Assembly (NCBI GenBank): GCA_002104945.1
Contig: MCFH01000015.1
Location: 806,001 to 870,000, forward strand
Direction: 5' to 3'
Length of the DNA stretch: 64,000 bases
Origin: Piromyces finnis finn
Lineage: Eukaryota > Fungi > Neocallimastigomycota
Shown here: piece after piece, positions 1 to 62,150 of the stretch
Position numbering within the stretch: the first letter of the stretch is position 1
Layout of the letters: each line of letters opens with the position of its first letter
Notes under the pieces: model-generated
What the model saw: only the letters and a program-made list of their open reading frames with translations
What the model was told of the DNA's origin: nothing
Databases searched by the model: none
Position numbers and translations under genes: made by a program

Positions 1-400
1 ACTCCTGATACATTTATCATGGTATCATACATAAATGAAATAATTTAAATTATTGTAAATTAGGTTAACGACAAGCTTTATTAAAAATTATATATTCTTA
101 AAAATTTATTATAAACTTTTTGACTTTGTATGAATCTTGTTTGGATTTGCATACTTGTATTCACACAAAGTATTAGTGTTGGTATTAATGTAACTTATCG
201 TAGTTGAATCTAATTGCTCTAGTTTATTCTTAATTATATATATGTCTATTAACACTAAACACTAAATTTTTAATATTTTATTTTCACTACCAGCGTTGTT
301 TAATATTATAATGCTTATTTAATAATTAATTTTTAAAATAATATAACAAATATGTTATTATTAATTAATGATGATGAATTATTAATTGAATAGTTTTTAT

Positions 401-426
401 AATATTAATTTAGCGCTCATCATGCC
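401..426 (-). promoter_or_regulatory. Rolling-circle origin, half 1: stem arm plus TAATATT heptamer up to the nick
   Basis: Minus strand reads GGCATGATGAGCGCTA-AAT-TAATATT|AT. TAATATTAT is the nonanucleotide of SsHADV-1-like genomoviruses. Confidence 0.75.
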
Positions 427-558
427 AGCTTTTGCACTTAGAAACGTGACTTTGGATTAACCTACGCTGATGCACGTGATGTCACAAAAGAAGAATTATA
501 CACGTGTTTACAACTATTAGTTATCGCCGACGCACATGTAGATAAATTAATGGTAGCT
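422..558 (+). pseudogene. rep: CRESS Rep N-terminus (HUH endonuclease motif I), frameshifted and truncated
   Basis: Restoring one T in the run at ~451-453 gives MPAFALRNVTFGLTYADARDVTKEELYTCLQLLVIADAHVDKLMVA. FGLTY matches RCR motif I, and the sequence breaks just before the expected motif II (HxH). Confidence 0.72.
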
Positions 559-1097
559 GATGGGGAATTTCCCACGGCTTTATCATTGGTTACTGTAGCA
601 GAAACCCCTTCAATACTCTGTGTCGGTAAGATTTTACGACCTTGTAAATAAGTACATAAATTATTGAACTTTAAATGACAAACACTATACCAAATAGTTT
701 TTGAGGCTGCACCAGCACCCATCCAAGAAAAACCAAATCTGTTTATATATTTGTTTTTAGTAGGGTTTGTTTTAAACAATTTGCGTAAAAATCGTTGTTC
801 GCGTGGTGTTCTACGTACTATCATACGTGTTGTAGTATGGGTTGTACCGGCAGCGTTTCCTTTAACTGATTCGAATTGTCTATTGCCAATCCTACGATTT
901 CTTCGTACAATCCTATCTCTTGCTCTACGTCCTAAATTTTGGGCCAATTGTCTTGCTTTATTACGCACCATCCTATTTCTCATTGCTCTTCGTAATACGT
1001 TACGTGCTACTACCGGTACTTTCCATAACGCTTGTCTTCCTATTTGTTGAATAGGATAATTTCTCGCTCTTCGTACAACTTGTTGTCGTTATGGCAT
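555..1097 (-). pseudogene. cap: CRESS capsid 5' half (Arg-rich arm), nonsense at codon 3, truncated
   Basis: MP*RQQVVRRARNYPIQQIGRQALWKVPVVARNVLRRAMRNRMVRNKAR... It matches 60716-61171, with 2 aa differences in the 143 codons from MRNRM to NSPSA. Confidence 0.85.
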
Positions 1098-1137
1098 TTT
1101 GATTGGTCAATCAAGTACATTCGTACATTATACGGAC

Positions 1138-1189
1138 ATTTATAGTAATTCCGCAAATTAAAGTTTAATTTAAAAAATTAATATAAATA
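1138..1189. promoter_or_regulatory. Divergent TATA boxes of the viral long intergenic region
   Basis: TATAAAT on minus (1144-1138) lies ~40 nt before the cap ATG (1097). TATAAATA on plus (1182-1189) points across the origin to the rep ATG (422) in the reconstructed circle. Confidence 0.45.
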
Positions 1190-1195
1190 GAGACT

Positions 1196-1220
1196 GGCAG
1201 GCAGGCATGGAGCGCTATAT
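1196..1220 (-). promoter_or_regulatory. Rolling-circle origin, half 2: post-nick AT, stem arm and GGCA x3 iteron-like repeats
   Basis: Minus strand starts ATA-TAGCGCTCCATGCC. Plus strand has GGCAGGCAGGCA at 1196-1207. Confidence 0.65.
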
Positions 1221-1750
1221 ATTATTAATATATTACATGTAATACTTTATTGCTATTCTTATCAATTTAATAATCTTAACAAAGGATATATAATAGAATG
1301 AATTGAATTCGATTTTAATTCGTTGTAAAGATTATAGTTATTATCTTAATTATATAGTTAATAAATATATTATATCATTTATATTACTATTAAATAAATA
1401 AAAATTTATAAAAAAGTTGTTTTAAAACAAATATTGATTTTTCTTATTTGGAAGTTTTAAGTATTATATTATTTATTAAATTAAATTTCTTAAAAAAGAT
1501 TTTACTATAAAATTAATAACATTCTGACCTGGCCACATAACCAAACCCTAAAACTTAATAAATTAAGTTAGTTATTACTTCTCTATACGAGTTAATAACT
1601 AAATATAGTTTTATAAAAAATAAATAAAAAACTAAAATAAATATTAAACACTAAAATATTTATTAATAATAAATATTAGTAGTAAATAATTTCGTTTTAG
1701 TAGTGTGAACGTATTCAAGAATTATCTTTTTGTTTTTTATATTATCTTTG

Positions 1751-3630
1751 TTAAAATGATTTTATTTCAATATGTTTTAATTTTGAATTTAAGTAACCAT
1801 TTTCAATTGCTGTTTTGCTTGACAAATTATCAGTGAAAATAGTAATTGGTTTGTTGAAATTGAAAATTTCTTTGAGAATATTTCTGACCCATAGAACTTT
1901 CTTTGTGCGTTCAGCAGTACTTACATATTCAGCTTCTGCAGTTGAAGTGGCAACCGTTGTTTGTTTTTTAGATTGCCATAATATGGAACCTTTTCCCATT
2001 AAAATAATACATCCTGAAGTTAATTTTCTATCAGATGTATCATCGCCAAAGTCAGAATCTGTATAGGCTTGTATTGAACCCTTTCCGTTGTAACAAATTT
2101 TGTATTGGCTTGTGGCGTTTAAGTATTTTAAAATGTTTGTAACACTTTTCCAATTGGTTGCAATTGGGTTTTCGGGGTATCTATCGGCCTTATTTACTGC
2201 GTAGGAAATGTCTTTTCTAGTACATTTTGAAAGGTATATTAGAGAACCAACTGCGCTTTTATAAGTTGTTTTGTTGAATGGCGTATTGCTTCTTGAAGTT
2301 TCCACTGGTGAATGGAGTTTTAGATTTTCTTGTTTTATTAATATTGAATTTTCTTAATATTTCTTTTATGAAATTCTCTTGGATATATGGTAGCTAAAAT
2401 TTTTTTTCTTTTATACCTAGGATATAATTGATTAGATTGCATTTTAAGATTTTAAATTTTGATTTGATTTTATCGACAATCCCTGTGATGATTAAATCAT
2501 CAACATATAACCCGATTATACATGAAGGAGGTTTACTACCAGCCTTTTTTATAAATATATAAGGTTCAGACGATAATTGCAGAAACTTGTTATTTAATAG
2601 AAAAGAAGAAAAAGTATTATTCCAATGACGGCCAGATTGTTTAAGGCCGTAGAGTGTCTTATTTAATTTCTAGTAGCCTTTGCCATAGTTGCGATCGCCT
2701 TGGGGGATGTGTATGGATGGCAAAGTCGAGAGGAGCATTTAGATATGCGGCTTTAATATCGAGTTGCATAATATTCCATTTGAACTTTGAAGCTAATGCA
2801 ATGAGAAGCTTGAGGCTATCGACACTAAGAGTAGGAGAAAATGTCAATTCATAGTCTATGCCAAGTTTTTGAGTAAAACCTCTGGCAACTAGGCGAGCCT
2901 TGTATTTATCGATACAACCAAAGGCATCTTTTTTAATAGTAAAAACCCATTTTGTAGATATAGGGGTTTTACCATATGGGACACTTTTAACTACTTCTAT
3001 AATATTGTTAGAATAAAGGTTATCTAATTCATTATTAATAGCCTCAACCCATTCCTTTTTGTTTTTCCCGGAAATGGCTTGTTTGTAGGTAAGGGGACTA
3101 TCAGTAACAATATTTATGGAAGGATTATCAGTAGTTGATAAAGATTTTTAGAGACATCATCAAGGAGAATCCTTTTCTTAAGACATAATAATTGTTTCTG
3201 GTTACCTTGCTGGGTGGCTTCGGAGGAATTGTGGTTTGAGTAATCATTCTTGCTTCTTCGGCCTACAAAGTCAATGTCCATCAAATCATCTTGGTCATTG
3301 TTGATAATCGACTGATTGTATTTAATGTTCTTTTGAAGGTAGATTTGAAAATTAACCTTGTTATTAACTTCGGTCAAAAAATCCTTAATCTTCTTTGTTC
3401 CATCAGGGTGTATCTGGGTTCTCATACATTGAGGTAAAGAATAATAAATAATCCTTGTTTTTTCCCAGTCTCCTAAGTTAGAATTGTTGGATTTCATCAC
3501 AGAGAATATTTCATTGATTTGATGGAGTACATCCTTACAGTCAGTTAAACTTTTGGCCTTTAAAGAATAAAGTTTCTTCATCCAATGTTGAATATCAGAT
3601 GATTCATTACCTTAATAAAGCTAGGGTTGT
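1751..3630 (-). mobile_element. Ty1/Copia remnant: gag joined directly to RT-RNase H (protease/integrase missing), frameshifted
   Basis: Copia RT motifs (KARLVARGF, IMQLDIKAAYLNA, GLYVDDL) and RNase H (YTDSDF..WQSKKQTTVATSTAEAEY..TDN). ORF 3114-3581 is gag-like. Confidence 0.85.
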
Positions 3631-41657: not shown

Positions 41658-42081
41658 TGATACGAAGAGGATATTATCTTAATTCTATATTTTACTATAG
41701 AAAGTGATAATATCTGTATCTAAAAATTTATAAATAAAAATAAGGAAAATAAAAATAGAATAAATGATTTTTATACTTGTTCATTTGCAAGTATTAGTTA
41801 ATTTTTAAAAATATAAAGTTTATTTAATTATAAAATTATCATTATTTAATAACTCTAGTATTATTAAATAAAAAAAATGTATGTTTTATATTCTAATTTT
41901 CAGGGATTATTAGTAACCCTTTTAAAAATAAGTTTTATTATAAAATCATTTTTGAATTTAATATTTAAAAGTATATATATCTAATTTTTCGCTCTGGATT
42001 ATTAGGAACATCTTTTAAAATAAAGTAATTCTATCACTATTTATACAAAATTATTATTTTAAAGTATAATTATAAACAAAT

Positions 42082-42808
42082 TGTAAAAGTTTTATAAATG
42101 TAAAACAGATTATAAAATTTTTTACAATAAAACAACAACACAAAATAAAGAAAAAACAAGAAAATAAATTATATTTAAAAAAATATCTCTTTTATTAATT
42201 TTATTTAGTTATTAACTAAATAATAGTCAATAACAATTACATCGTTTTAATCAAGAAATTTTACATGCATTTATATTTTTCGTAAATTATATTTTAATAT
42301 ACTATTCTATTTAATTATACATATATTCAATATAAAATAAACAAAACTAATTTAATACTAATTTAATTAAATAATAAAATAATAAAACTAAACTAAAACT
42401 AATTAAATACACTTTTGATTCAATTTGAGTAAACTGCAAATTGAATACAGTCCATGTATTACCTATATATTAATTAAATATTAATAATACTATTTATTAT
42501 ATATTTATAATTAAAAATGCTAATTTAAAACTACGCTAAAGTTATTAAACTAATTTTAATTAAATAAAAACTTTTTAAGATTTAATTTGAATATTTAAAA
42601 TATTTAAATTTAATTATCCATTAATTTAAATATTTATCCAAATTTCATTTCTAACTTTGATATTTTAAAATTAATATTTATTTAATTATTCCATAAAATT
42701 TATACAATAAATTTTATAAACAATTTTTTCATTAAAATATCAAAATTATTATTCAATAATTATTAATTAATTATTAAATAATTTAAAGATATACTTTATA
42801 TCTTTACA
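42082..42808 (-). repeat. 3' LTR (727 bp)
   Basis: TGTAAAAG...CTTTACA, matching 48236-48962. Confidence 0.95.
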
Positions 42809-42839
42809 ATCTCGCCCTTTAAGTCGAGCTCCTGCGAGA

Positions 42840-45800
42840 TTATTTCTTTGAAGGAATATCAATTACAAATGGTTGATATCTATGTTTGATCATACCATTG
42901 TTATTCCTTGTATAGACTTGATCTTGACTTTCTTTTCTAGACTTTTTATTTTTTCTATAAAATTCTTGGATCAATTGTACATCTGTAATTTGATCTTCCG
43001 GGATCCAAGTATTTTCGTCAAGATTTTTCCATGTCATCAAGAAAGATTTCTTTCCATGATAATTTCTTTCTTGAATAATCTTATCAGGAATCCTATCAAT
43101 AGTATCAGTAGTTAACTTAACATTTTTTCTTTTATTCATTACTGATCTATTTACAAATTCATTTTCGTTATAAGGTTCCAATAACGAAACATGAAAAACA
43201 GGGTGGCAACGTAAATTGTTTGGTAGTTTTAATTCAAATGCTAAAGGGCTTACCTTCTTGATTATTTCAAAAGGTCCAAGCATTTGATCAGCAAGTTCTC
43301 TTTTGATATTTTTATTTGAAGGATTAATACCTTTTAATAACCAAACTTTTTTACCAACTTCGAAATCTGGGGATTCCATTCTCTTTTGATCAGCATACTT
43401 TTTGTAGGTTTCTTTTGCTTGATCAAGATTTACTTTTAAAAATTTAATGTTTTCATTAATATCCAAAATTCTTTGTTCAGCTCTATTTGGTCTATTCGCT
43501 GAAGGGATTTCAGGGTTAAATTTTGGATTGAACCCATAATTAGCGAAAAACGGAGATTGGTTGATTGATTGCTGTAAAGTATTGTTATAAGCAAATTCAG
43601 CAAAAGGTAACAAGTCAACCCAATTATTCTGTTTTTCGTTAATAAAACAACGGAGATATTGTTCCAATATCCCGTTTACCCTCTCCGTTTGACCATCAGT
43701 TTCAGGATGGTTTGCAGTAGAAAAAGCAAGTTTAATATTTAACAAATTACATAAACGATTCCAAAAGTCTGAGGTAAATTGAGTACCTCGATCAGAAATG
43801 ATGGAATCAGGAAAACCATGTAATTTAAAGATATTGTTAACAAAAACATCAGCTGCTATAGAAGCAGTAGGCAAACATCTTAAAGGAATAAAATGAGCCA
43901 TTTTTGTTAACCTATCAACTATAACCATAATGGTAGTCATGTCTTTGGATTTAGGAAGCTCGACAATAAAATCCATTGACAATTCCGACCAAGCTCTATT
44001 AGGTGTGGAAAGAGGAGAAAGCAAACCATATGGTTTATGTCTTGGAACTTTAGCTTTACAACAAGTTTCGCAAGACTTTATAAACTTTTTAACATCATAA
44101 CTAAACTTTGGCCACCAAAAATTTCTACTAATTAATTCAATAGTTTTATTAACACCAAAGTGACCAGCAGAAATAGAATCATGATGTAATTCTAAGACCC
44201 TAGTTCTTAGTGAAGAAGGAACATAAATTAAATTATCATAAAGTAAAAATCCTTCTTTATCAATTTTAACTTTATTAATATTCCTAATCGGAGGGGACGA
44301 AGAATTTTTATCATTAAGAAATACACAAACTTTATTATATAAATCATCATTTTTTAAGGAACATAGAATAGAATTAATTAAAGAATCATCTTTATTAAAA
44401 GAATTAATTACATTACATGAAATAAAATTACAACTAAAATTACTACATTCAATATTTTCATTAATCCTATCATTATTATAAATATTACAGATATGATCAC
44501 TACGTCTGGATAACAAATCAGGTTTACCAGACTTTTTTCCAGCTCTATAAATTAACTTAAAATCAAATCTTGATAAAAATTCATACCATCTTATCTGTCG
44601 TTGTGAGAGCATCTCAGGCTTTCTTGGAAAGGTTAAATTCTTATGATCAGTATAAATGATGAACTGATGCTTTGCACCTTCCAGATAATGCCTCCATTCT
44701 TCAAGAGCCACTTTGATAGCGAGCAACTCTTTATCATAAATTTGATAGTTCCTTTGAGACTTGGTTAAGCTAGATGAAATAAAAGCAATAGGGTGCAATT
44801 GCCCTTCAAATTCTTGTGAAAGAATTGCACCGACAGCAAAGTTACTAGCGTCAGTCTCAACAATAAAAGGTTTGTTGCTATCAGGGTTCATTAAGATAGG
44901 AGCTGAAGTAAAAGCCTTTTTAAGTGTAACAAATGCATTTTGACACTCAGAAACCCAATTAAAAGGAACATTTTTCCTAGTAAGTTTGTGTAGAGGACTA
45001 GCAATTTTCGCAAAGTCTTTAATAAAAATTCTATAATAATTACATAATCCAATAAAGGATTGAACTTCTTTAACGTTTGTAGGAACAGGCCAGTCGAGGA
45101 TAGCTTTAACTTTATCTCTATCCATTTTCAGACCATCTTTGGATAATACATAACCAAGGAAAGTGGTTTCTGAAACATCAAACTCACACTTCTCTAACTT
45201 AACATATAAATTATTTTCTAATAATTTTTTCAATACTTTTTTAACATGTTCATGATGTTCTTCTAGGCTATTTGAATATATTAGAATATCATCAATATAT
45301 GATATAGCAAAATCATCTAAATAATCACTAAGGACATCATTTATGAAATGTTGAAACGTAGCTGGTGCATTCTTTAAACCAAAAGGCATGACAAGATATT
45401 CAAAATGCCCATATCTTGTTCTAAAGGCAGTTTTGTATTCATCACCCTCTTTGATTCTAACTAAATTATAAGCAGACTTTAAGTCCAACTTAGTAAAGTA
45501 TTTTGCACCTTTCACTCTATCCAATAAGTCACCAATTAACGGAAGAGGATATGAATTTCTAATTGTCATGTCATTAAGTTTCCTATAATCAACGCAAAGT
45601 CTTAATGACCCATCTTTCTTTTTGACAAATAAAACTGGTGCTCCGGCAGGAGATGAAGATTTCCTAATGAAACCTTTTTCTAAATTTTCATTGATATAAT
45701 TTTTTAATTCATCTCTCTCTGCCTCAGTTAAAGGATAAAGAGGACCATAAAACAAGTTAGCATTATCCTTTAATCGGATTTCACAATCGTATTCACGATG

Positions 45801-47651
45801 TGGAGGTAAAATATTACAATTCTTTTCATTAAAAACCTCTTTAAATAATAAATATTGTTTTGGAATTTCAATAGATTTTTTATCTTTATTCAAATTATCA
45901 CTTTCACTTTTACATTTATTAATAATATTACAAAATAAATCATAACAGTTACTAACTGAATTTAATACACGAGAATTATTATTATTACACACGTTTTTTG
46001 AAAATGAGTACTGTTTTGGTCCAGTGACCGAATTATTATCTTTATTTAAATTTTCATCAATACAATTAATGCTATTACATATACATTTAAAATTACAATT
46101 ATTATCATTATTTAAACTATTACTAAATTTAATTTTATTAAAACTATCTAGGTTACTAATGGTTTTGACGGAGGTTCTACGGCCTCTAATACTTAATGTT
46201 TCTTCATCATCACTGGAGTCGCTATAAGAGTATTCATAATGATTGTATGAACCAAGTTCACTATAAGAGGATTGATCATCTTCATCATCTTGAATAACTT
46301 CTTTTCCTTTTCTTGATGATATTTTTTCTTTCTTGGTTTCCTTTGTGCTACTCTTGTTCTTTCTTCTTCCCACATTACAATGTCTGGCACAGTATGTAGA
46401 GTTAAATGCAATTTTGGAAGAATCGTGGTAGTAAACAGGGCAATGTTTATCAATCCAAGGTACACCAAGAATTATATCAACTTCAGGAATTCTAAGTGCA
46501 TATAATTGAATGACTTCGTAATGATTTCTCAAACGAAGGATGCACTTTTCGGATTCCTTTTTCACGGTAGATGTACCTTGCCCTAAACCAGAAACCTTGA
46601 AAGATTCAGCAATATTTGAAAGTTTAATATTATTGATTCGGGCGAACTCGGGGTGGATGAAATTAAGATCGGAACCAGAATCAATAAGTACCTTAGCTTT
46701 GACTTCATCAATATCATTGGTTTTGATATAAAAATCAATAATATTTTTCTTTTCACCTTTATGAATTTCGAATATGTTTGAAGTTCCCTTGGAATTAAGA
46801 TTATCCTTTTTAATTTTCTTGATTGAAGGGCTAGCTTCGTCTTCTGAATAGCATCTCTTGATAATTTTTACATTTTTTGGTTTCTTTTTGTTTGGACAAT
46901 TGAATTGAAAGTGTCCAGACTTTCCACAAGTAAAGCAAACTCCATTCTTCTTAGCCTCAGTGCGATTTATTTTATTTTCGTCATAATTACTTCTATGAGG
47001 AGGGAAGTAATTAACCTTTCTTTGACCTAAACTGATCCTATATAAATCCACATCCATAGGATCATTTTGGTTATAATTTCTTCGGTCTTGATGCGTCATG
47101 TAATATTCACTGATATCATTTCTCTTAGTAAGATTTTCAATACTAAGGACATCAGAATAAAGACGCTCTAATTGAGAGGGATTTGGATTCACTACAGCTA
47201 AATGTTCACGCATTTTCGGATGTAATCCCTTTGTGAACATGTATATTTTAGCTGCTTCATTAAAATTCGAATTTTGGCTAACGCGTTGGAATTCGTTAAT
47301 GTATTCGAACACCTTGCCAAATTTTCTTTGTTTAATGTTGCAAAGTCTTCCATTTGCAACAATCGTATCATTATTCGGATCCCCGAAATTGGTACGAAGA
47401 GCAGCAATAAACCGATCATAGTTTCTTAGAACGGCGTCGTTATTTTGTCTTAAACGAGCGGCCCATTCTAAAGGTCTATTGACAAAGTAAGATATTAAGA
47501 ATCGAACTCTTGCCTCATCATTAACAAATCTATCAGGGTTGGCTTCAATGGCTAGTTCAACCCTGGTCAAGAACCCATCTAGTTCTTGTCTTCTTCCTGA
47601 AAAGGTTGGAGGATCATTAACTATCCTCAAAGACGCCCCTTGACGGTCCAT
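42840..47651 (-). CDS. gag-pol: Gag-Pol polyprotein: Gag, CCHC, protease, RT, RNase H, integrase, chromodomain
   Basis: First ATG at 47651 (the track's 47699 start is TTG). Motifs CFTCGKSGHFQFNC, LIDSGS, YIDD, TDAS/ELLA/TDH, H..H..C..C, MDF/SDRG/QTERVN, GPF, and C-terminal SFLMTWK..NTWIPE. Confidence 0.96.
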   Translation of the reverse strand: MDRQGASLRIVNDPPTFSGRRQELDGFLTRVELAIEANPDRFVNDEARVRFLISYFVNRPLEWAARLRQNNDAVLRNYDRFIAALRTNFGDPNNDTIVANGRLCNIKQRKFGKVFEYINEFQRVSQNSNFNEAAKIYMFTKGLHPKMREHLAVVNPNPSQLERLYSDVLSIENLTKRNDISEYYMTHQDRRNYNQNDPMDVDLYRISLGQRKVNYFPPHRSNYDENKINRTEAKKNGVCFTCGKSGHFQFNCPNKKKPKNVKIIKRCYSEDEASPSIKKIKKDNLNSKGTSNIFEIHKGEKKNIIDFYIKTNDIDEVKAKVLIDSGSDLNFIHPEFARINNIKLSNIAESFKVSGLGQGTSTVKKESEKCILRLRNHYEVIQLYALRIPEVDIILGVPWIDKHCPVYYHDSSKIAFNSTYCARHCNVGRRKNKSSTKETKKEKISSRKGKEVIQDDEDDQSSYSELGSYNHYEYSYSDSSDDEETLSIRGRRTSVKTISNLDSFNKIKFSNSLNNDNNCNFKCICNSINCIDENLNKDNNSVTGPKQYSFSKNVCNNNNSRVLNSVSNCYDLFCNIINKCKSESDNLNKDKKSIEIPKQYLLFKEVFNEKNCNILPPHREYDCEIRLKDNANLFYGPLYPLTEAERDELKNYINENLEKGFIRKSSSPAGAPVLFVKKKDGSLRLCVDYRKLNDMTIRNSYPLPLIGDLLDRVKGAKYFTKLDLKSAYNLVRIKEGDEYKTAFRTRYGHFEYLVMPFGLKNAPATFQHFINDVLSDYLDDFAISYIDDILIYSNSLEEHHEHVKKVLKKLLENNLYVKLEKCEFDVSETTFLGYVLSKDGLKMDRDKVKAILDWPVPTNVKEVQSFIGLCNYYRIFIKDFAKIASPLHKLTRKNVPFNWVSECQNAFVTLKKAFTSAPILMNPDSNKPFIVETDASNFAVGAILSQEFEGQLHPIAFISSSLTKSQRNYQIYDKELLAIKVALEEWRHYLEGAKHQFIIYTDHKNLTFPRKPEMLSQRQIRWYEFLSRFDFKLIYRAGKKSGKPDLLSRRSDHICNIYNNDRINENIECSNFSCNFISCNVINSFNKDDSLINSILCSLKNDDLYNKVCVFLNDKNSSSPPIRNINKVKIDKEGFLLYDNLIYVPSSLRTRVLELHHDSISAGHFGVNKTIELISRNFWWPKFSYDVKKFIKSCETCCKAKVPRHKPYGLLSPLSTPNRAWSELSMDFIVELPKSKDMTTIMVIVDRLTKMAHFIPLRCLPTASIAADVFVNNIFKLHGFPDSIISDRGTQFTSDFWNRLCNLLNIKLAFSTANHPETDGQTERVNGILEQYLRCFINEKQNNWVDLLPFAEFAYNNTLQQSINQSPFFANYGFNPKFNPEIPSANRPNRAEQRILDINENIKFLKVNLDQAKETYKKYADQKRMESPDFEVGKKVWLLKGINPSNKNIKRELADQMLGPFEIIKKVSPLAFELKLPNNLRCHPVFHVSLLEPYNENEFVNRSVMNKRKNVKLTTDTIDRIPDKIIQERNYHGKKSFLMTWKNLDENTWIPEDQITDVQLIQEFYRKNKKSRKESQDQVYTRNNNGMIKHRYQPFVIDIPSKK

Positions 47652-47869
47652 ATTTTCGTTTAAGTGGAGGTTAGATAAGAGTTGGTTGATTTCCTCCAAT
47701 ATGCTTAATATTTTACTTATTTAATTTTTTACAATATTTTAATTAAGATGTCGTCGTAACTCTATCCTATCAAACGGTGTTAGACGAGCTCTTAAAAATA
47801 TAGTAACAAAATTAAATACAGTAACCAAATAGTGTTGGAAGCTTGAATGATACTAAAATAATAATCTAA

Positions 47870-48149
47870 ACGCGGTAGATATTTCCTAAGACACGGTAGA
47901 TCGCCTTTAAAACACAGTAGATATTCCTTTAGACGCGGTAGATATTTCCTAAGACACGGTAGATCGCCTTTAAAACACAGTAGATATTCCTTTAGACGCG
48001 GTAGATATTTCCTAAGACACGGTAGATCGCCTTTAAAACACAGTAGATATTCTTTTAGACGAGGTAGATATTTCCTAAGACACGGTAGATCGCCTTTAAA
48101 ACACAGTAGATATTCTTTTAGACGAGGTAGATATTTCCTAAGACACGGT
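47870..48149. repeat. 63-bp tandem repeat x~4.4, each made of three 21-bp subunits, in the 5' UTR
   Basis: Units start at ~47870, 47933, 47996, 48059 and 48122. Subunits share the core AC(G/A)(C/G)(G/A)GTAGAT. Confidence 0.92.
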
Positions 48150-48224
48150 AAGTAAGAAAAAAAATATTAAATATGTTTTATTAAAAAAAAAAAAATTTTA
48201 TAACGTGTTTTATAAAAAAAAAAG

Positions 48225-48235
48225 GTAATTGTTAT
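48225..48235 (-). promoter_or_regulatory. Self-priming PBS (ATAACAATTAC)
   Basis: Abuts the 5' LTR, has no TGG, and is perfectly complementary to the LTR sequence at 48384-48394. Confidence 0.85.
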
Positions 48236-48962
48236 TGTAAAAGTTTTATAAATGTAAAACAGATTATAAAATTTTTTACAATAAAACAACAACACAAAAT
48301 AAAGAAAAAACAAGAAAATAAATTATATTTAAAAAAATATCTCTTTTATTAATTTTATTTAGTTATTAACTAAATAATAGTCAATAACAATTACATCGTT
48401 TTAATCAAGAAATTTTACATGCATTTATATTTTTCGTAAATTATATTTTAATATACTATTCTATTTAATTATACATATATTCAATATAAAATAAACAAAA
48501 CTAATTTAATACTAATTTAATTAAATAATAAAATAATAAAACTAAACTAAAACTAATTAAATACACTTTTGATTCAATTTGAGTAAACTGCAAATTGAAT
48601 ACAGTCCATGTATTACCTATATATTAATTAAATATTAATAATACTATTTATTATATATTTATAATTAAAAATGCTAATTTAAAACTACGCTAAAGTTATT
48701 AAACTAATTTTAATTAAATAAAAACTTTTTAAGATTTAATTTGAATATTTAAAATATTTAAATTTAATTATCCATTAATTTAAATATTTATCCAAATTTC
48801 ATTTCTAACTTTGATATTTTAAAATTAATATTTATTTAATTATTCCATAAAATTTATACAATAAATTTTATAAACAATTTTTTCATTAAAATATCAAAAT
48901 TATTATTCAATAATTATTAATTAATTATTAAATAATTTAAAGATATACTTTATATCTTTACA
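48236..48962 (-). repeat. 5' LTR (727 bp)
   Basis: Matches 42082-42808. Confidence 0.95.
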
Positions 48963-52837: not shown

Positions 52838-52907
52838 TATTATAAAAGTGCGCTAAGCACCAATTAGTTAGTAATTATTAATAACTAAATATAATAATTA
52901 AAGTTTA

Positions 52908-55900
52908 ATGGGAAAATCTCCACTTACACCTATTAAAGTGGATACAAAAGAATTTTTTAACCGCCTACAAACTACCAAGAGAGAACGTTCCCCAGGAAAT
53001 ACTCCCGTAAGAAAATCAAAGATGCCTAATCATTCCGGACAAATTAATGCTTCTACGAGTAATCCTACTCAGAAGCCAACTACTAATGAGGATCTCAAGG
53101 CCCTCATTGAGTCTTTAACTGCTACCTTAACTGGGAATATCAATCAGTTAAAGGTTGATATTCAAGCTACCAGAAGGGAAAACGAAAGTCTCAATGATCG
53201 TTTGACTGTTTTGGAAAACTCTACTCAAGTTATTATGGGTAAGATGGCTACTTTAGAAGTCAACGATGCTAGGAAAGACAATCAACTCGCTGATATCAAA
53301 GCTCATATCAGCAAAGCTACTCAAAGAGTTGATGAGTTGTCTACTCCCGTTACTCCTTCTACTACTACCCCTCACGAACCTGACGGTGACGTCATCATGG
53401 GAGATGCTTCGCCTCCAAACGTCGCTGAAAAAATGCTTTCTTACTCAGGAGAAAGTATTCAACTACGCAGATTCATCCGTCGATGCGAACACCACTTCTT
53501 AAGACACATCAAGTTCTATGGAAACAATGAAGCTATGAAAGTAAACTTCATTGAAGATTGTCTTACTGGTGATGCTGCAGATTGGTACGTTGTTGAACAA
53601 GCAGACTTCCAGGAATCTCATCCGAATAGAAAAGTTCTTTACGAAGCTTTGAGTAAGAGATTCCTTAACCCGAAGGATATCAACATCACCAAAATCGACC
53701 TGATGAAGCTCAGACATAGTTGGGGAAAAGCTTCCGAATACTTAGGAAAATTCTCCCAATATGTCAAATTAATTGGATGTTCCGAAGACATTCAATTAAC
53801 CATCATGCTTTTCCAAGTTAGACCTACCGTGAACCACGCCTTTAGTAAGTTAACTTCTGATAGACAAACGTTAGAAGAACTGAAGAATCTTCTAATCAAA
53901 TATGATGCTTCCAAGGATACTTATTACGATGATACTTTGGAAAGACAAGCTAACTACAAGGACAAAGAGCCCTTAATAGCTAATTTATTAGGTATTCATG
54001 GCAGTCTTTATTCCAAAAACCCTAACAAGAATAACAATCGTAATAACAACCAAAGGAACAACAATAACAGCAATCGCCCGTCTAACCAAAAAGGAAAAGG
54101 CTCCAGTAACTTGGATAGCAAGTCTAGTACTAAAAATCCCAATAAAAGTACTAAACCTAATAATGGTACTTCATACTCCAGCTATCTCTGTGAAGTAGAA
54201 GAGCAAGATATCTTAGAGCTACCAAATCCTGATCCGGAGAAGTATCCCATCGTGAAGACTAGTGTAAAAACTTCTAAAGGATCTAGACAGGTTATCACTT
54301 CGTCTCTCTTAGATTCTGGCTCTACTACCAATGTAATCCATATGGATTTAGTGAAGAAACTAGGAATTAAGACCATACCAGCTGATACTGTTGTAAAGGT
54401 CATGGGAGGTAATGTCCTAATGCATTACATCACAGAAGAGTTCAACATTGTAATGAACTTATCTTCTTTAGGAAGAACTCGAGAAGAAGTTCGTCAATAC
54501 AAACTTCGATGCCACGTAGCTGATCAGCTTCCTTCTTCGATTCTCCTAGGTTCTAAGTTCATGAAAACCAACTTCTTCTGTATCTTTACACAACCTGACC
54601 ATTCCTTTACAGTTAAAATTGGTCCTGTTCCTTTCTCCAACCATAATGGATCTGAGATTAAATCTCCTAACTTTAGGAATGATTTGAAGAAATCTACACC
54701 TCTTCATGAATTACGCGAAGTCCTCCAAAAGAGACAGTTCGTCTTAGACGAACAATGGGACAAAGAACATTTGAACGATCGAGGAAGAATCGTGATCAAG
54801 AAACAATCAAGCAAGAAACCCAATAATAACCATGTCCACAACACAGAAACGATAACCCTATCCAACGAAGAAAAACTGAAAATCGAACAAAGGCTTCTTA
54901 AACAAAAACAAAACAATCAAAGTTTTATAATCTCAACTGACCATAAAGAAGGACTCGACGAATACATTATCAAGGAAATACAAAACCTCCCTCAAGAATT
55001 ACAAGAATTCAAGCAAGTTTTCGGACCACCACCAAAGGGCAAGATATTTAATAGGAAAAACGAAAATTTAAATTCATACTTACCTTATGATAAGGAAAAA
55101 GTTAAGAGGCTACCCATGATGCCTCACATCAAATTAGACAAAAACCAAGAAGACGCTCTTGAACAAGAATTTCATGAACTTGAACAGAACGGAAAAATCG
55201 AGAGAACTCGATCCAGTTCGGCTTGCAACGTCTTTAATGCACCTAAGAAAGATGGTACATTCAGAACTGTGTTTAATTACGTTATGGTTAATAATTGCCT
55301 ACACCATAACAACTACCCAATACCTAAAATAATCGAACTTGTACACAGAGCTGCCCAGTATAAGTTCCATATTTTACTAGATTTAAGAAATGCCTATAAC
55401 CAAATCTATCTCGAGCCCAAATATCGTTTCCTTACAAGCTTTAGATTTAAAAACCAAACCTATCAATGGAAAGTTCTTCCCTTTGGACTCTCCACTGCCC
55501 CATCCATTTTCCAATCCATTCTCAACCTCTTATTAAAAATATACTTGAATAAAGGTATTGATATCTACCTAGATGATATACATATTTATGCCCAAGATAA
55601 GCAAGAATGCCTCAGACTTTGTGCTTACACTTTAAAGAAGTTCAAAGAAAATAATTTCTTTTGTAAACTTGAAAAATGCTTATTTTTCCCAGAAGAATTC
55701 GAATATTTAGGGTACAAAATTGGATATGAAAAAATACGTCCTATTTCTAATAAAACTTTAGACATTAAAGAATGCAAAACACAAAAGGAATATCAGCAAC
55801 TATATGGCTTTCTTAATTATTTCAAAGACTACGTAAATAACTTTACCGAAAGAACAAAATATATCTCTATGGGACTATCAAATAAAACCACTACTTGGAC

Positions 55901-57923
55901 TAAAGAAATGAATGACGAACTAAATTATTTTAAGAAATTAATTCCTAACCTTCCAAATTTAGCACCGTTTAAACCTAACCACGATATCTTTATCCTAACC
56001 GACGCATCGGAAATCGGAATTGGCGCCGCAATTTTTCAAGCGGGGGCCCCCAATGTACATATTCAAAATTACATTTTAAGTAACGTATACAAGAATAATA
56101 TTAATCGTGAAATCATCGAAAACTTATTTGGTCATAAAAATTGGACATTAAACGGACATTCTGAAGTAAATGGACGTGAAAATAAGAAAATCGATAAAGC
56201 CAAGAATCGTGAAGATATCAATCCACCAATTAAATTGAATGAAGCAATGAATACATTTGAAATAAAAAACAATAGTTTATCCGAATTAAAAAAGTATTTA
56301 AAACCCATAGGCTTTTTCTCCAGAAAATTGAATTCTACAGAAAGAAAATATTCAACATTCGACAGAGAATTATTAGCTCTCTCGGACACCTTACAACACT
56401 ACCGGTTACTTCTCCAACAAGGACAAAAAATATACTGTGCGACGGACCATAAGAATTTGGTAATCTACATAAATTCCGGATCCAAAGTCGAAACTAATCG
56501 TAAGTTAAGATTATTTGAAAATATTTGCAATTACAATATAATACCTTATTATATCGAAGGAAAAGACAACAAGATTGCAGATCTACTCTCAAGATTTATT
56601 AAAATGGAAAACGAAACCGAAAATACTAGCAACAGAAGAAACCCACAGCAGGTCAACAATATTGAAGAAACAAATTCTTTGGATTTCTTAGTAAATGCCA
56701 TTGAACTCAAGGACTTAGAATCTACCAACAAAGAAGAAGATAACGAGGAACCAGACTTAAAAGTCTTTAAGACTACCATAAGTTCGCTAATGGAAAATAA
56801 TAAACAAAAGGAACTAAAAAATTATCTTATCAATTGGTACAAGAACCAGGATATGTTATTCAAATCATTGAAGGAACAAATAGTAAACCTACTAGAAGAA
56901 AACACTTTCTTCGAAAAACAATATAAAAAACAAGTTAATCTCAGATGTCAAGACCTAAAAGATGTATTGGATAAAAGAGAACATTTTAGTTCAGAAATAA
57001 AAAAGGTGAAAGATGAATTACAACTTCTACAAACTGGCAACACCCAAGGAGAAACTAAAAGAAAATTTGATAGACTTAATCAAAAAATAAACGATTTAAG
57101 GTATGACCTCAATCCAAAGGCTGAAAGAATAGAACTCACTAAGAAAGTAAACCATTCGGAAAAACAGATAACTGCCCAATGGAAAGAGATAGAAAACCTC
57201 AAGAAAATAATAGAAAAAATGGATAAAAGGATAACTGCCCTAATCATTGACAACGAAGAAGACTCAAATCTGGATAAATCAACTTCCATTCCAACAGAAA
57301 CAGTCTTCATAGTCGATGATCAGAATCCTGAACTAGTAGAATCTATCAACGGTATACCTTTGGAATATGAAGATTTATATGAAGCCTTCAATGAAGAACG
57401 AGCCGATGAACTTCCTGAACATCGTGTATATGATTGTTCTATTGATTTGAAACCTAATGCTTCATTATTTTATGGGCCAATTTATCCAACTACTCCTACT
57501 GAACGTCAATTTATTAAGGAGTATATTGAAGAAAACTTGAATAAAGGATTCATTAGAAAATCCCGATCTCCTGCTGGACATCCAGTTCTACTCCAAGATA
57601 AGAAGGATGGTAGTCTCAGATTTTGCGTTGACTATCGCAAGCTCAACGACCAAACTATCAAGAATGCCTATCCGCTACCTTTAATCCTATCAGTCTTTGA
57701 ATCAATGAAAGGTGCTAACTATTTCACTAAGTTAGACCTCAAGTCAGCTTATAATTTAATTAGGATTAAAGAAGGTGACGAATACAAGACTGCATTTAGG
57801 ACGGCATTTGGTCACTTTGAGTACTTAGTCATGCCTTTTGGACTAACTAATGCTCCTGCAGTTTTCCAAGCTTTCATTAATGATATCTTTAGTGATCAAA
57901 TTAATAAGTACGTTCAAGTGTAA
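52908..57923 (+). CDS. gag-pol: Polyprotein part 1: Gag, protease, RT1, RNase H1, coiled-coil domain, N-terminal half of RT2
   Basis: Gag (YSGESIQLRRFIRRCEHHF), LLDSGS, RT1 (LLDLRNAYNQI, LPFGLSTAP, YLDD at 55566), RH1 (TDAS, RELLA, TDH, ADLLSR), then a second RT ([37 protein letters not shown]). Confidence 0.92.
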   Translation: MGKSPLTPIKVDTKEFFNRLQTTKRERSPGNTPVRKSKMPNHSGQINASTSNPTQKPTTNEDLKALIESLTATLTGNINQLKVDIQATRRENESLNDRLTVLENSTQVIMGKMATLEVNDARKDNQLADIKAHISKATQRVDELSTPVTPSTTTPHEPDGDVIMGDASPPNVAEKMLSYSGESIQLRRFIRRCEHHFLRHIKFYGNNEAMKVNFIEDCLTGDAADWYVVEQADFQESHPNRKVLYEALSKRFLNPKDINITKIDLMKLRHSWGKASEYLGKFSQYVKLIGCSEDIQLTIMLFQVRPTVNHAFSKLTSDRQTLEELKNLLIKYDASKDTYYDDTLERQANYKDKEPLIANLLGIHGSLYSKNPNKNNNRNNNQRNNNNSNRPSNQKGKGSSNLDSKSSTKNPNKSTKPNNGTSYSSYLCEVEEQDILELPNPDPEKYPIVKTSVKTSKGSRQVITSSLLDSGSTTNVIHMDLVKKLGIKTIPADTVVKVMGGNVLMHYITEEFNIVMNLSSLGRTREEVRQYKLRCHVADQLPSSILLGSKFMKTNFFCIFTQPDHSFTVKIGPVPFSNHNGSEIKSPNFRNDLKKSTPLHELREVLQKRQFVLDEQWDKEHLNDRGRIVIKKQSSKKPNNNHVHNTETITLSNEEKLKIEQRLLKQKQNNQSFIISTDHKEGLDEYIIKEIQNLPQELQEFKQVFGPPPKGKIFNRKNENLNSYLPYDKEKVKRLPMMPHIKLDKNQEDALEQEFHELEQNGKIERTRSSSACNVFNAPKKDGTFRTVFNYVMVNNCLHHNNYPIPKIIELVHRAAQYKFHILLDLRNAYNQIYLEPKYRFLTSFRFKNQTYQWKVLPFGLSTAPSIFQSILNLLLKIYLNKGIDIYLDDIHIYAQDKQECLRLCAYTLKKFKENNFFCKLEKCLFFPEEFEYLGYKIGYEKIRPISNKTLDIKECKTQKEYQQLYGFLNYFKDYVNNFTERTKYISMGLSNKTTTWTKEMNDELNYFKKLIPNLPNLAPFKPNHDIFILTDASEIGIGAAIFQAGAPNVHIQNYILSNVYKNNINREIIENLFGHKNWTLNGHSEVNGRENKKIDKAKNREDINPPIKLNEAMNTFEIKNNSLSELKKYLKPIGFFSRKLNSTERKYSTFDRELLALSDTLQHYRLLLQQGQKIYCATDHKNLVIYINSGSKVETNRKLRLFENICNYNIIPYYIEGKDNKIADLLSRFIKMENETENTSNRRNPQQVNNIEETNSLDFLVNAIELKDLESTNKEEDNEEPDLKVFKTTISSLMENNKQKELKNYLINWYKNQDMLFKSLKEQIVNLLEENTFFEKQYKKQVNLRCQDLKDVLDKREHFSSEIKKVKDELQLLQTGNTQGETKRKFDRLNQKINDLRYDLNPKAERIELTKKVNHSEKQITAQWKEIENLKKIIEKMDKRITALIIDNEEDSNLDKSTSIPTETVFIVDDQNPELVESINGIPLEYEDLYEAFNEERADELPEHRVYDCSIDLKPNASLFYGPIYPTTPTERQFIKEYIEENLNKGFIRKSRSPAGHPVLLQDKKDGSLRFCVDYRKLNDQTIKNAYPLPLILSVFESMKGANYFTKLDLKSAYNLIRIKEGDEYKTAFRTAFGHFEYLVMPFGLTNAPAVFQAFINDIFSDQINKYVQV

Positions 57924-60317
57924 TTGGATGATATCATTATCTACTCCAAGACCCTTGAAGAACATGTTCAACATGTTAGAAATGTTCTTCAATTAATCAT
58001 TGAAAACAACTTAGTTGCGAAACTCAAAAAATGTGAGTTTCACAAAGCTGAAATCGAATTTTTGGGTCACGTAATCAGTAAGGAGGGAATCAAAACTGAT
58101 CCTCACAAAATTGAAGCAGTTAAGAACTGGCCTATCCCCACTACTGTGAAAGAAGTTCAGTCTTTCTTAGGGTTATGCAATTACTACCGTCGCTTTATCT
58201 CTAACTTTTCTAAAATTGCAAAACCATTATACAACTTAACTAAGAAAGGCGTCACTTTCATATGGACAGACGAGTGTAATAGAGCATTTAATCAACTTAA
58301 AGAATTTCTTACTTCAGCTCCAGTTTTACTTTGTCCTGATCACGATAAACCATTCATAGTTGAATGTGACGCAAGTGACTTTGCTATCGGGGGAGTACTT
58401 TCACAAAAAGGTGATGATGGAGACCTGCATCCAGTTTATTACTTTTCTAAAACCCTTCATGATGCAGAACTTAATTACTCTATCACCGAAAAGGAACTCT
58501 TAGCAATTCGTCAAGCTTTTATCGAATGGCGTCACTTACTTCAAGGTGCAAAATATCCTATTACCGTTTATTCAGACCATCGAAACTTGCTTTTTGCTAC
58601 CAAACCGCAACTTCTATCCCAAAGACAAGCTCGTTGGCAAGAATACTTTGCTACTTTTGATTTCAAGATTATCTATCGACCAGAAAAGAAAAATGGTAAA
58701 GCTGATGCTCTCTCTCGTAGATCCGACCATATGCTCACAGTTGGTAAGGATATAAGTGAATCATCCTTACTTAAACCAACTCAATTAGAAGGATTCAACG
58801 AAGATGAATGCTACTTCTCTATGGAAACTAGCTTCATTGACGACATTAAGCAGTGCTACCTTCAAGATGAAACCGCTTGTCAGATTCTTAAGGATCTTGA
58901 AGTTCCAAATAGTGATCATCCTTGGATTCTTCAAGATGGCCTTTTAATAAGAACCAAACATCCGGAGCAAGTATATGTTCCAAGTCAACTAAGACTCTTA
59001 GTTATTAAGCTCAACCATGATGCACCCACTGCCGGTCACTTGGGAGTCGATAAGACTTATGACATTCTTAAACGTAATTTCTATTGGGTTAATATGCGTC
59101 AAGATGTCGAGTCTTATATTCGAAGCTGTAGTGTATGCAAGGCAATGAAAACCGATCACCATGCTCCTTATGGTAATATGATCCGTGTCCCTCTTCCGGA
59201 ACTTCCATGGCAACATCTACAAATGGACTTTATCACGGACTTACCATCAAGACCTTGTAACTCTACCTTACCATTCGACTCTACCAATCCGAACCACTAT
59301 CAAGGTACCATAATGGTTACTACTTGCTACTTAACTAAGATGATACACTTAGTTGGGTTCAAACATTTATCCACTGCTAAGGAAACTGCTACTGCTTTTC
59401 TTAACCATATTTTCAAACTGCACGGATTCCCCTTATCTATTGTTACAGACCGTGGTACTCAGTTCGAAAGTCGTCTTTGGTTCCACTTGATGGAATTCTT
59501 TAATATCGATCACCACTCTGCTACTACTGGCCATCACCGCACTGTTGGACAAGTAGAACGTAACAACGACTACGTCGAAACTTATCTTCGTTGCTACTTA
59601 GCTCAATTTGATGATCTCAGTTGGATGGATCATTTGTACTTAGCTGAATTTTGCTACAACAATTCCATCCATGCTTCCACCAAGCAACCACCATTTCTCT
59701 CCGTCTATAATTATCAAGTTCACGCAAACCCACAAATTGCAGACCTTGTTTCTTCTTTAGGACTTCATCCCCTCATCGATAGCTTCTCCCATAACTTAGC
59801 TGACCTTAAGCATACTCTCGAAGTCAGTCGTACCCGTTATCTCGATGAAAAGGATAAGCACCTTTATCACAACTTTAAGCGCTTCAAGGTCCACGATCTT
59901 GTTTGGCTTCGCAAACCCGCTAATTATCATCCTCCATTAGCGTTCAAGCTCCAAACCCGCAAGTATGGTCCATACAAGGTCACTGGTGTCGATGAATCTA
60001 AGCTCAACTACCGCCTTGATTTATCTACCTCACCTTTCCCTCGTGTCTACCCCGTATTCCACATCAGTGAACTCGAACCATATCATCCCACTCCTCACCA
60101 TCTATTGCTCAACCATCCCAACTCCAATGAAATCACCAAGATCCTTAGTTCTCGTAAATCGGGTCATTTTTACGAGTACTTAGTCACTTTTACTGACTTA
60201 TCTCAACGTTGGATCAATGCTGACACCATTGATAAGGATGACTACTACAGCACCCTTTTAGCTGATTACCAACGTCGCGCTTACCAACAATTCACCAATT
60301 CCGTCCCAGATTCTTAA
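57924..60317 (+). CDS. pol: Polyprotein part 2 (same frame, after TAA): rest of RT2, RNase H2, integrase, chromodomain
   Basis: LDD, CDASD/KELLA/SDH/ADALSR, HDAPTAGH..CSVC, MDF/TDRG/QVERNN, GPYKV, EITKILSSR..YEYLVTF..RW. Confidence 0.9.
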   Translation: MDDIIIYSKTLEEHVQHVRNVLQLIIENNLVAKLKKCEFHKAEIEFLGHVISKEGIKTDPHKIEAVKNWPIPTTVKEVQSFLGLCNYYRRFISNFSKIAKPLYNLTKKGVTFIWTDECNRAFNQLKEFLTSAPVLLCPDHDKPFIVECDASDFAIGGVLSQKGDDGDLHPVYYFSKTLHDAELNYSITEKELLAIRQAFIEWRHLLQGAKYPITVYSDHRNLLFATKPQLLSQRQARWQEYFATFDFKIIYRPEKKNGKADALSRRSDHMLTVGKDISESSLLKPTQLEGFNEDECYFSMETSFIDDIKQCYLQDETACQILKDLEVPNSDHPWILQDGLLIRTKHPEQVYVPSQLRLLVIKLNHDAPTAGHLGVDKTYDILKRNFYWVNMRQDVESYIRSCSVCKAMKTDHHAPYGNMIRVPLPELPWQHLQMDFITDLPSRPCNSTLPFDSTNPNHYQGTIMVTTCYLTKMIHLVGFKHLSTAKETATAFLNHIFKLHGFPLSIVTDRGTQFESRLWFHLMEFFNIDHHSATTGHHRTVGQVERNNDYVETYLRCYLAQFDDLSWMDHLYLAEFCYNNSIHASTKQPPFLSVYNYQVHANPQIADLVSSLGLHPLIDSFSHNLADLKHTLEVSRTRYLDEKDKHLYHNFKRFKVHDLVWLRKPANYHPPLAFKLQTRKYGPYKVTGVDESKLNYRLDLSTSPFPRVYPVFHISELEPYHPTPHHLLLNHPNSNEITKILSSRKSGHFYEYLVTFTDLSQRWINADTIDKDDYYSTLLADYQRRAYQQFTNSVPDS

Positions 60318-60742
60318 TCTGGACCCCACTTATTAGTATCCCACCTACTAGTGTCTACCACCCTTACTCCTTCACTACCCACCTATCGCCACTACCCCAC
60401 CTACTACCCACAACTCCGCTACCCACTAGTCGCCACCACTACAACTACCAACCACTATTCCGCTACCCAACCACCCTCTTTCGCCTTTGCCCTCAACCCT
60501 CAAATTCCGCAACCTTTTCCGCATCCCAAAATCCGTATCCCCTCGAGTCATATCATTTCCCTAACCTTCACGTGTAGTCTCCATTTCTGAAGAATCCACG
60601 TGATACCCTCACAACTTTTCTTTGAACACTTTTACACCTCACTTTTTCAACACTTAGAAAAATTTTGAGAATTTTCAAAAAATGGAAATTCTCAATTTTT
60701 GAAAAAAAATCTAAGGTAGCACGTAACGTATTACGAAGAGCA

Positions 60743-61867
60743 ATGAGAAATAGAATGGTGCATAATAAAGCAAGACAATTGGCTCAAAATTTAGGACGTA
60801 GAGCAAGAGATAGGATTGTACGAAGAAATCGTAGGATTGGCAATAGACAATTCGAATCAGTTAAAGGAAATGCTGCTGGTACAACCCATACTACAACACG
60901 TATGATAGTACGTAGAACACCACGCGAACAACGATTTTTACGCAAATTGTTTAAAACAAACCCTACTAAAAACAAATATATAAACAGATTTGGTTTTTCT
61001 TGGATGGGTGCTGGTGCAGCCTCAAAAACTATTTGGTATAGTGTTTGTCATTTAAAGTTCAATAATTTATGTAATTATTTACAAGGTCGTAAAATCTTAC
61101 CGACACAGAGTATAGAAGGAGTTTCTGCTACAGTAACCAATGATAAAGCCGTGGGAAATTCCCCATCAGCTGGTATTTACGTTGGTAAATGTACATTCCA
61201 TTACGAATTGTATAACCCAACTAATTATTTAATGACCGTATACATTTACGATTTAATTTGTAAATGTGATACACCACATCAAATAGCATATTCTGATGCT
61301 AATAATGATGGTAATAGTGCCCCTGAAGCTTGTATGCAAAAGGGTTCAAAATCCATGACCGATGGAGGTTCTGCCCCAACATGGCAAGTTGCAGACCCTA
61401 CACTCGAAATGGGTACATATTGGAATACTGTTGGTATGAAACCAACGGACTATCATTTATTTAATACGATTTGGAAAGTCAAAGGAATGAAAAAAATCAT
61501 TTTACCACCTGGATCATCACACCATCACGTGGTTATATACAACCCAAAAAAGAAGATAACCAATGCTAGTTTATTATACCCTAGAGAAACTAGACATACT
61601 AATAATAAAATGGGTATTGGTGGTATTACACAAGCAACTTTATTTGGTTTTGAAGGTCAAGTTGCAACTGAAGACAATCAACGTAGTGATGGTACAATTG
61701 TAGGTACATTACCTGGTAAATTATTAGTTAAATGTATTAAAAAGGTAAATATATGGGATCTTCCATGTAACTATCAATCAGTAACATCTGAAGATGATTT
61801 AGTAGCAACATGGACTAAACCAACTATATTCTCTGATTTAGTAGAAGTCAATGCAAGCTCTACATAA
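60743..61867 (+). CDS. cap: CRESS virus capsid protein (Arg-rich arm plus probable single jelly-roll), 374 aa from first in-frame ATG
   Basis: Very Arg-rich N-terminus followed by beta-strand-type segments (FHYELYNPTNYLMTVYIYDLIC, IWKVKGMKKIILPPGSSHHHVVIY). Near-identical to the copy next to a Rep and origin at 401-1220, and converges on a Rep remnant. Confidence 0.85.
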   Translation: MRNRMVHNKARQLAQNLGRRARDRIVRRNRRIGNRQFESVKGNAAGTTHTTTRMIVRRTPREQRFLRKLFKTNPTKNKYINRFGFSWMGAGAASKTIWYSVCHLKFNNLCNYLQGRKILPTQSIEGVSATVTNDKAVGNSPSAGIYVGKCTFHYELYNPTNYLMTVYIYDLICKCDTPHQIAYSDANNDGNSAPEACMQKGSKSMTDGGSAPTWQVADPTLEMGTYWNTVGMKPTDYHLFNTIWKVKGMKKIILPPGSSHHHVVIYNPKKKITNASLLYPRETRHTNNKMGIGGITQATLFGFEGQVATEDNQRSDGTIVGTLPGKLLVKCIKKVNIWDLPCNYQSVTSEDDLVATWTKPTIFSDLVEVNASST

Positions 61868-62137
61868 GAACACGTGACATACAACTAAGTTAACGTGTTT
61901 GATCCCTGTGAGCCGCAGGCTCTAGACCCTGGCCGTTGACTATCACATGTTTATATCTCATGGTGATCATGTGATGAGTCACACCCTCCCACTTATCCAT
62001 AGCCAAGTGGTTCTGAGAGGATTGTTTCCTACTCTGGACGGACGGCTCTGGGGGAGTAGGAGGAACAGATTTTTTTATTATTTTTATTTAACACAAAATG
62101 TATACAACACAAATATAATGTAATGTAATGTAAATAT
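61868..62137. other. GC-rich, hairpin-rich viral short intergenic region
   Basis: Stems AACACGT/ACGTGTT, GAGCC-GCA-GGCTC, ATCACATG/CATGTGAT, CCACTT/AAGTGG and TCCTACTC/GAGTAGGA. Confidence 0.6.
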
Positions 62138-62150
62138 AATAAACTTTATT
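62138..62150. terminator. Back-to-back polyadenylation signals AATAAA-C-TTTATT
   Basis: AATAAA on plus (62138-43) for cap. AATAAA on minus (62150-45) overlaps the rep stop. Confidence 0.6.

Follow-up and report, generated by a model that had tools for sequence, protein, structure and literature searches.

Endogenization of CRESS virus DNA is generally treated as passive capture at chromosome breaks (PMC7758297), and integration driven by the viral Rep has been proposed without junction evidence (PMC3198968, PMC5014472). In the accessible parts of these sources, one puts forward excision and invasion driven by Rep and reports a truffle element flanked by TIRs (PMC3198968), another describes tandem elements with intact origins and proposes a Helitron-like spread by Rep (PMC5014472), and a third presents the replication origins of these viruses as both nick sites and recombination hot spots (PMC3187698). 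Among the closest described systems are the endogenous geminivirus-like elements (Nicotiana GRD, yam EGV1, and the fungal Rep elements of Liu et al. 2011), which resemble the locus described here in being integrated DNA of Rep-type ssDNA viruses with truncated genes; however, they either retain an intact origin within tandem repeats or are located in a TIR element whose transposases are separate, and the accessible accounts describe none of them as nick-opened within a look-alike host word. Our literature search returned no nick-to-nick CRESS insert and no CRESS inserts in gut fungi (the supplements of EVE surveys may list them); the accessible part of PMC9615429 contains 0 mentions of Piromyces, Neocallimast- or Anaeromyces, and that of PMC13696870 holds nothing bearing on a nick-to-nick CRESS insert.

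The locus studied here lies in a stretch of 64,000 bases of a Piromyces finnis contig (hereafter the window), which is eukaryotic, has a GC content of 24%, and is rich in copia and gypsy remains. These include an apparently intact gypsy element (42080–48962) that has an ORF of 1,626 codons between LTRs of 729 bases identical to each other, a gypsy-like element (52902–60317) whose two long ORFs are divided by a single stop, a further reverse-transcriptase start and a long coiled stretch lying in the first ORF, and a decayed copia element on the minus strand (1751–3611), which begins 530 bases to the right of the insert described below.

Positions 401–1220 (minus strand) are a virus-derived insert of 820 bases, which opens at the predicted nick of its origin and derives by deletion, with the origin retained, from an ambisense virus of ~2.7 kb. 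The GC content of the insert is 0.37, against 0.155 and 0.135 in the two flanks, both of which are members of high-copy host repeats: the left flank (355–400) has a summed contig depth of ~50,000 and the right flank (1221–1360) one of 14,500–290,000, compared with ~149 for unique flank, and run X1 agrees with positions 1–400 at every base (0 differences). A tandem viral genome, with viral sequence continuing beyond the insert, had been named in an earlier note on this DNA as something that would undo its reading; we rejected it because both flanks are AT-rich, high-copy host DNA that is very deep in run X1 and nonviral. Virus and host have the same four bases in common at both junctions (398–401 on the left and 1218–1221 on the right), of which three precede the break and one follows it, and the left overlap grows to six bases (398–403) if the left flank once continued like its repeat family. 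On the minus strand, the host word at 1221–1229 matches eight of the nine viral bases before the nick and is the candidate acceptor end. The end sequences, their coordinates, the host join TAATAAT^ATAAAAAC, its 8/9 match to the viral nonamer and the four-nucleotide ambiguity are all as the earlier note had written them. The right flank also contains a perfect 14-base palindrome (1231–1244), ten bases from the junction.

Gene content shows how much of the virus is left. The insert is ~30% of a ~2.7 kb ambisense genomovirus-like genome: the origin is retained, and one deletion has joined what is left of Rep to what is left of capsid, in each case the 5′ end of the gene. The Rep piece (422–557, plus strand) includes motif I (GLTY), has its frame broken after codon 6, and stops just before HUH motif II; it aligns to the Rep of a free 2,734-base genome, L001, with a score of 50 that 0 of 5,000 shuffles equaled, and to a second relative (P0236) with 40% identity over 45 aa (E 1e-8; profile E 5e-4). 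The capsid piece (555–1097, minus strand) holds the first ~180 of 412 codons and has a stop at codon 3. Rep and capsid overlap by three bases at the deletion joint (555–557), where ~1.9 kb is missing; contigs of run X1 continue past this joint, by 130 bases on the Rep side and by 110 on the capsid side, and none of the X1 contigs listed spans it. The unit-length genome of the earlier note is thus not what is present, as only 820 of about 2,700 bases remain. The insert is dead, its Rep being cut before the HUH motif and parted from the intergenic region found upstream of Rep on the circle, and because its Rep ends there, any Rep that took part acted in trans or before the deletion. We regard a deletion in a defective circle before insertion and a deletion in place of a full inserted genome as about equally likely; since the short intergenic region is missing from the insert, the deletion may postdate insertion. 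No Pfam family was assigned to the capsid or Rep pieces of the window, and no intact Rep was found within its 64 kb, where motif I and a C-terminal end are present. A capsid-only segment of a multipartite virus was also considered as the source and rejected, because the Rep start is present and both genes continue in other copies.

The donor belongs among viruses of genomovirus-like organization. We found 104 relatives of the capsid at E values up to 0.001, many on contigs of 2.5–2.9 kb (such as P0011, P0016, and P0083, of 2,840, 2,752, and 2,734 bases). A model of the capsid with a moderate pLDDT of 62 best matches the capsids of STNV and geminiviruses (E 3e-4) and CRESS capsids (E to 1e-19), and the capsid is accordingly modeled as a single jelly-roll with a basic N-terminus, as expected of a genomovirus-like protein. 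The ambisense layout is likewise genomovirus-like, with the capsid on the virion strand and Rep on the complementary strand, diverging from an intergenic origin, as is the TAATATTA(C/T)-type nonamer in a virion-strand hairpin. L001 carries the capsid of Cattle blood-associated gemycircularvirus (NCBI: Genomoviridae, Gemykibivirus cowchi1) and a Rep that matches PF00799 and PF08283, and it shares with the insert the ambisense arrangement, the nonamer TAATATTAT in a capsid-strand hairpin, and a Rep start beside the stem. The cattle-blood virus has a capsid 53% identical to that of the window and a short intergenic stretch 84% identical; it differs in being a free 2,734-base genome, whereas the window holds deleted, integrated pieces, and the Rep start of the insert is nearer to P0236 than to this virus. 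Genomes of the Genomoviridae are usually about 2.2 kb. The nearest named relative, which is filed in that family, is 2.7 kb with an unspliced Rep, and the Rep pieces of the window are too short for a tree.

The capsid of the window falls in a 90% cluster of at least four copies, two of them on the same contig as the window and two named Piromyces finnis, and more distant capsids are named from Pecoramyces (P0138) and Anaeromyces (P0148). In a quick capsid tree of 46 chosen rows, the capsids from Piromyces, Anaeromyces, and Pecoramyces form one clade with free circles and the cattle-blood virus (34 of the 46 rows, support 100). Because capsids named from three gut-fungus genera share this clade, anaerobic gut fungi are likely its hosts, as judged from sequence placement. 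The Pecoramyces relative consists of two partial copies in one gene model, and P0138 and P0148 group with free circles of ~3.2–3.3 kb that have longer capsids (629–639 aa). Scans for related loci gave no match in a single-protein viral scan (0/6 stretches), a metagenome scan (0/135), or a phage collection, and an alignment scan matched 1 of 45 stretches.

Closing positions 401–1220 into a circle restores a stem of 14 bp, interrupted by a bulge of two bases (−16.2 kcal/mol, z −6.0), a stability that 0 of 500 shuffled sequences reached, and places the nonamer in its loop; the earlier note had predicted such a hairpin and nonamer on circle closure, and both are there. The nonamer TAATATTAT occurs in the insert on the capsid-sense strand only, within this hairpin loop, its first seven bases (the viral 3′ end) at 401–407 on the minus strand and its last two at 1220–1219. 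The nick we take to fall between its positions 7 and 8, by analogy with the biochemistry of geminivirus and genomovirus Reps. One arm of the stem (411–426) contains the Rep start codon and the other (1204–1217) lies in the long intergenic region (1098–1220), which has a TATA-like word (1182–1189), three tandem GGCA (1196–1207) that are possible Rep-binding repeats, and a 30-base stretch that is 87% like positions 94–123 of L001. This arrangement is general among the relatives: of the 78 Rep relatives examined, 57 have a detectable stem-loop, and the nonamer lies opposite the Rep strand in 56 of these. One contig of run X1 spans the closed origin, running from 1217 to 398 with 140 letters on its short side, which indicates that the closed form exists in a related copy.

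A second viral copy (60716–62314) lies near the other end of the window. It comprises a capsid gene whose 5′ end is cut at codon 30 and which is complete to its stop (60716–61867, plus strand; 448 of 456 bases identical to 555–1010), the short intergenic region that the 820-base insert lacks (61868–62149, of which 61999–62070 is 84% like L001 1590–1664), and a C-terminal fragment of Rep (62150–62314, minus strand; profile E 5e-8 and 7e-10). This copy has no origin and starts in mid-capsid without microhomology. It directly follows a long gypsy-type pol ORF (ending at 60317) and precedes an inverted relative of that element (63014–64000), and no LTRs enclosing it were found. Of the three copies whose origin region is visible, one is origin-opened, namely the insert; the second copy and the X1 contig with the intact origin (depth 207) are not. 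The earlier note had named copies broken at other positions as evidence against its reading, and this has come about in part.

Differences between copies bear on where the insert came from. Insert and second copy differ at 8 of 456 bases, and six of these differences, all at third positions, are also found in the majority contig of run X1 (P 0.0014). Between positions 398 and 557, the X1 contig differs from the insert at 19 places; among the 10 listed in 442–557, eight are third-position, and seven of the nine changed Rep codons are synonymous. Mostly synonymous differences point to a distinct, replicating virus variant as the source, inserted during an infection in which Rep was present; on these sequence comparisons the insert derives from its own circulating variant rather than from the copying of another insert, and is young. 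Likeness between the insert and the X1 contig with the intact origin is ~88% on the Rep side (398–557) and 97% on the capsid side (555–1217), a gap that suggests recombination at the origin between virus variants. Runs X2 and X3, which we guess to be RNA and which belong to two studies, each contain a contig (depth 20 and 8) with a third Rep variant at 442–545, which has 12 differences, with six of the seven listed codons synonymous, and does not occur among the X1 contigs listed; both contigs end 50 letters past the aligned part, near the origin. They hint weakly that a Rep is expressed or that a virus is resident. Capsid depth in run X1 is ~3.7 times the unique depth. The insert's own letters at 21 listed differing places, and any contig bridging its junctions, do not appear among the X1 contigs listed; such contigs drop rarer variants, and the two junctions are situated in repeats of very high depth, so the missing bridge leaves the insert unconfirmed by reads, not refuted.

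The predicted empty site, in which 400 would join directly to 1221, was not observed in the data searched. Neither flank has a paralogue within the window, and a 25-base flank word had one exact match in the JGI metagenomes, in an unrelated context. The sole X1 joint across the site runs from 399 to 1218, with 27 letters on its short side and a depth of 150 (unique flank 149). Relatives of the left flank diverge after 403 (one contig in X2 and two in X4) and those of the right flank before 1218 or 1220 (three contigs in X1), and the site in the flank family matches the nonamer at only 5/9 positions. Because the right-flank relatives differ from the window before 1218–1220, the junction may coincide with the edge of a host repeat, and because flank relatives continue with other letters, host DNA may have been lost, a hint that comes from paralogues and partly listed X1 pieces.

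How unusual are these junctions? A random opening would fall on the nick in 5 of 820 registers of the short circle, or 5 of 2,734 of a full-size one. Among 33,454 AT-rich sites, 306 (0.9%) match the nonamer at 8/9 as the host join does, and 334 (1.0%, a figure independent of any guess at the empty site) match the nine prenick viral bases as well as the acceptor word does; the 11/12 identity around the break, in a window chosen post hoc, recurs in 32, and four shared bases at the nick recur in 4,172 (12%). Few parts of the circle are as host-like as the origin loop, and homology-guided capture is therefore a fair rival. When the break is set by best local homology, the nick is reached at 4–6% of sites on the 820-base circle with both strands considered (11% with one strand) and at 0.5–0.7% (both strands) on full-size L001, a stand-in with a different loop. 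Homology-only capture thus arrives at the nick at just 0.5–6% of sites, which favors the involvement of Rep, and because a nick opening combined with a look-alike host word is hard to obtain by chance, a role for Rep is the leading reading.

We consider it probable that the insert reflects a one-off insertion opened at the viral Rep nick, and predict, with a probability of about 0.5, that it was joined by Rep at one or both ends to a look-alike host site. The donor is an ambisense CRESS virus with a hairpin origin, as its structure shows, and both ends of the insert fall within the 4–6 bases that cover position 7/8 of the nonamer, where such a donor would have been opened. Rep, covalently attached to the viral 5′ end after the nick, would then have passed that end to a host 3′ end resembling the prenick word at 8/9 positions; by analogy with Rep joining chemistry, a 5′ end bound by Rep would plausibly require such a word in its acceptor. 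Less surely, a further Rep transfer or microhomology repair may have connected the viral 3′ end to the remaining host end, and host DNA may have been lost in the process. The ~1.9 kb was deleted at the 3-base overlap, whether before insertion, in a defective circle, or afterward.

Two rivals accept the same ends and differ in who made the joins. Rep may have opened the donor only, a linear, unit-length rolling-circle intermediate then being end-joined into a chromosome break through 4–6 A/T bases that virus and host have in common at either end. The standard view, that capture is passive and happens at breaks (PMC7758297, as far as that source is accessible), favors joining by host repair, which also accounts for the nick ends, a possible host deletion, and two separate microhomologies of six and four bases; a linear donor, however, has its prenick word at the opposite end, with no pairing at the right junction, so that the 8/9 host match becomes a coincidence expected at 1.0% of sites, and we hold this account to be a minority possibility. 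Alternatively, without any Rep, a broken host end may have paired with the A/T-rich origin loop, been copied for one lap, and returned at the same homology. Such templated repair would explain the 11/12 identity at the break, and the best-matching register falls in the nick region with a 4- to 11-fold enrichment, 23% (one strand) or 37/334 (both strands) of the 11/12 matches on the 820-base circle lying there; yet in absolute terms its chance is low on the short circle (4–6%) and lower on the full-size stand-in L001 (0.5–0.7%), and it needs a complete lap, which leaves it rather unlikely.

Two further rivals remain. The insert may not be chromosomal in this form in every culture, being an assembly chimera or an insertion in part of the population, as among the X1 contigs listed none has the insert letters and none bridges a junction, and the joint across the site is as deep (150) as unique sequence (149). 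That joint, one side of which has fewer than 31 letters, could itself be a paralogue, the contigs drop rarer variants, and the codon-biased differences mark the insert as real viral sequence, all of which renders this explanation improbable. More improbable again is membership in an active family of rolling-circle transposons derived from a CRESS virus. HUH chemistry is common to Helitrons and Replitrons, a transposon-like role has been proposed for endogenous Rep genes in the accessible parts of PMC3198968 and PMC5014472, and at least four capsid copies fall in one 90% cluster; however, copies differ by synonymous changes as separate viruses do, other copies end elsewhere, capsid depth is just ~3.7 times unique in run X1, and the catalytic Rep is missing from the insert. 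Several copies with the same termini at different sites, the mark of such a transposon, were not found, one of three visible copies being origin-opened.

A Rep-joined, one-off insertion is hence the reading we retain, and the earlier claim of Rep-mediated integration survives in part: the nick opening and the look-alike word speak for it, whereas what was inserted is 30% of a genome without a catalytic Rep, in a single event, at a site whose empty form may differ from that predicted. The stronger wording, a CRESS virus acting as a rolling-circle transposon, finds no support, given the single event and the lack of a catalytic Rep in the insert. We tentatively hypothesize, as a doubtful extension, that a genomovirus-type Rep can act as an occasional integrase, nicking a chromosomal look-alike of the nonamer and joining both viral strand ends in the style of AAV or a relaxase, of which the insert would be the footprint. 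A nick-to-nick insert at a nonamer-like word offers a testable pair of substrates and a signature that can be counted in other genomes; if the reading is true, joining by Rep would link viruses to HUH transposons mechanistically. Separately, the gut-fungus capsids point to likely hosts for a virus clade that had none assigned.

AAV, the relaxase TrwC, IS91, IS200/IS605, Helitrons, and Replitrons resemble the reading retained here in that an HUH enzyme nicks and joins one strand, at a word that is short or looks like an origin. Site-specific integration of AAV, which depends on Rep, is covered in the accessible part of PMC3187698, and Replitrons in that of PMC10288648. Geminivirus subgenomic DNAs resemble the insert in keeping the origin while both genes are cut by an internal deletion; unlike it, they nearly always retain the origins of both strands and are about half size, whereas the insert is 30% and is without the short intergenic region (accessible part of PMC3187698). 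On the tests run, the insert works like a one-off HUH integration and falls outside all families of rolling-circle transposons. It stands apart from AAV, TrwC, IS91, IS200/IS605, Helitrons, and Replitrons in that it comes from a capsid-coding circular virus, arose in one event with no family around it, and is known from sequence alone.
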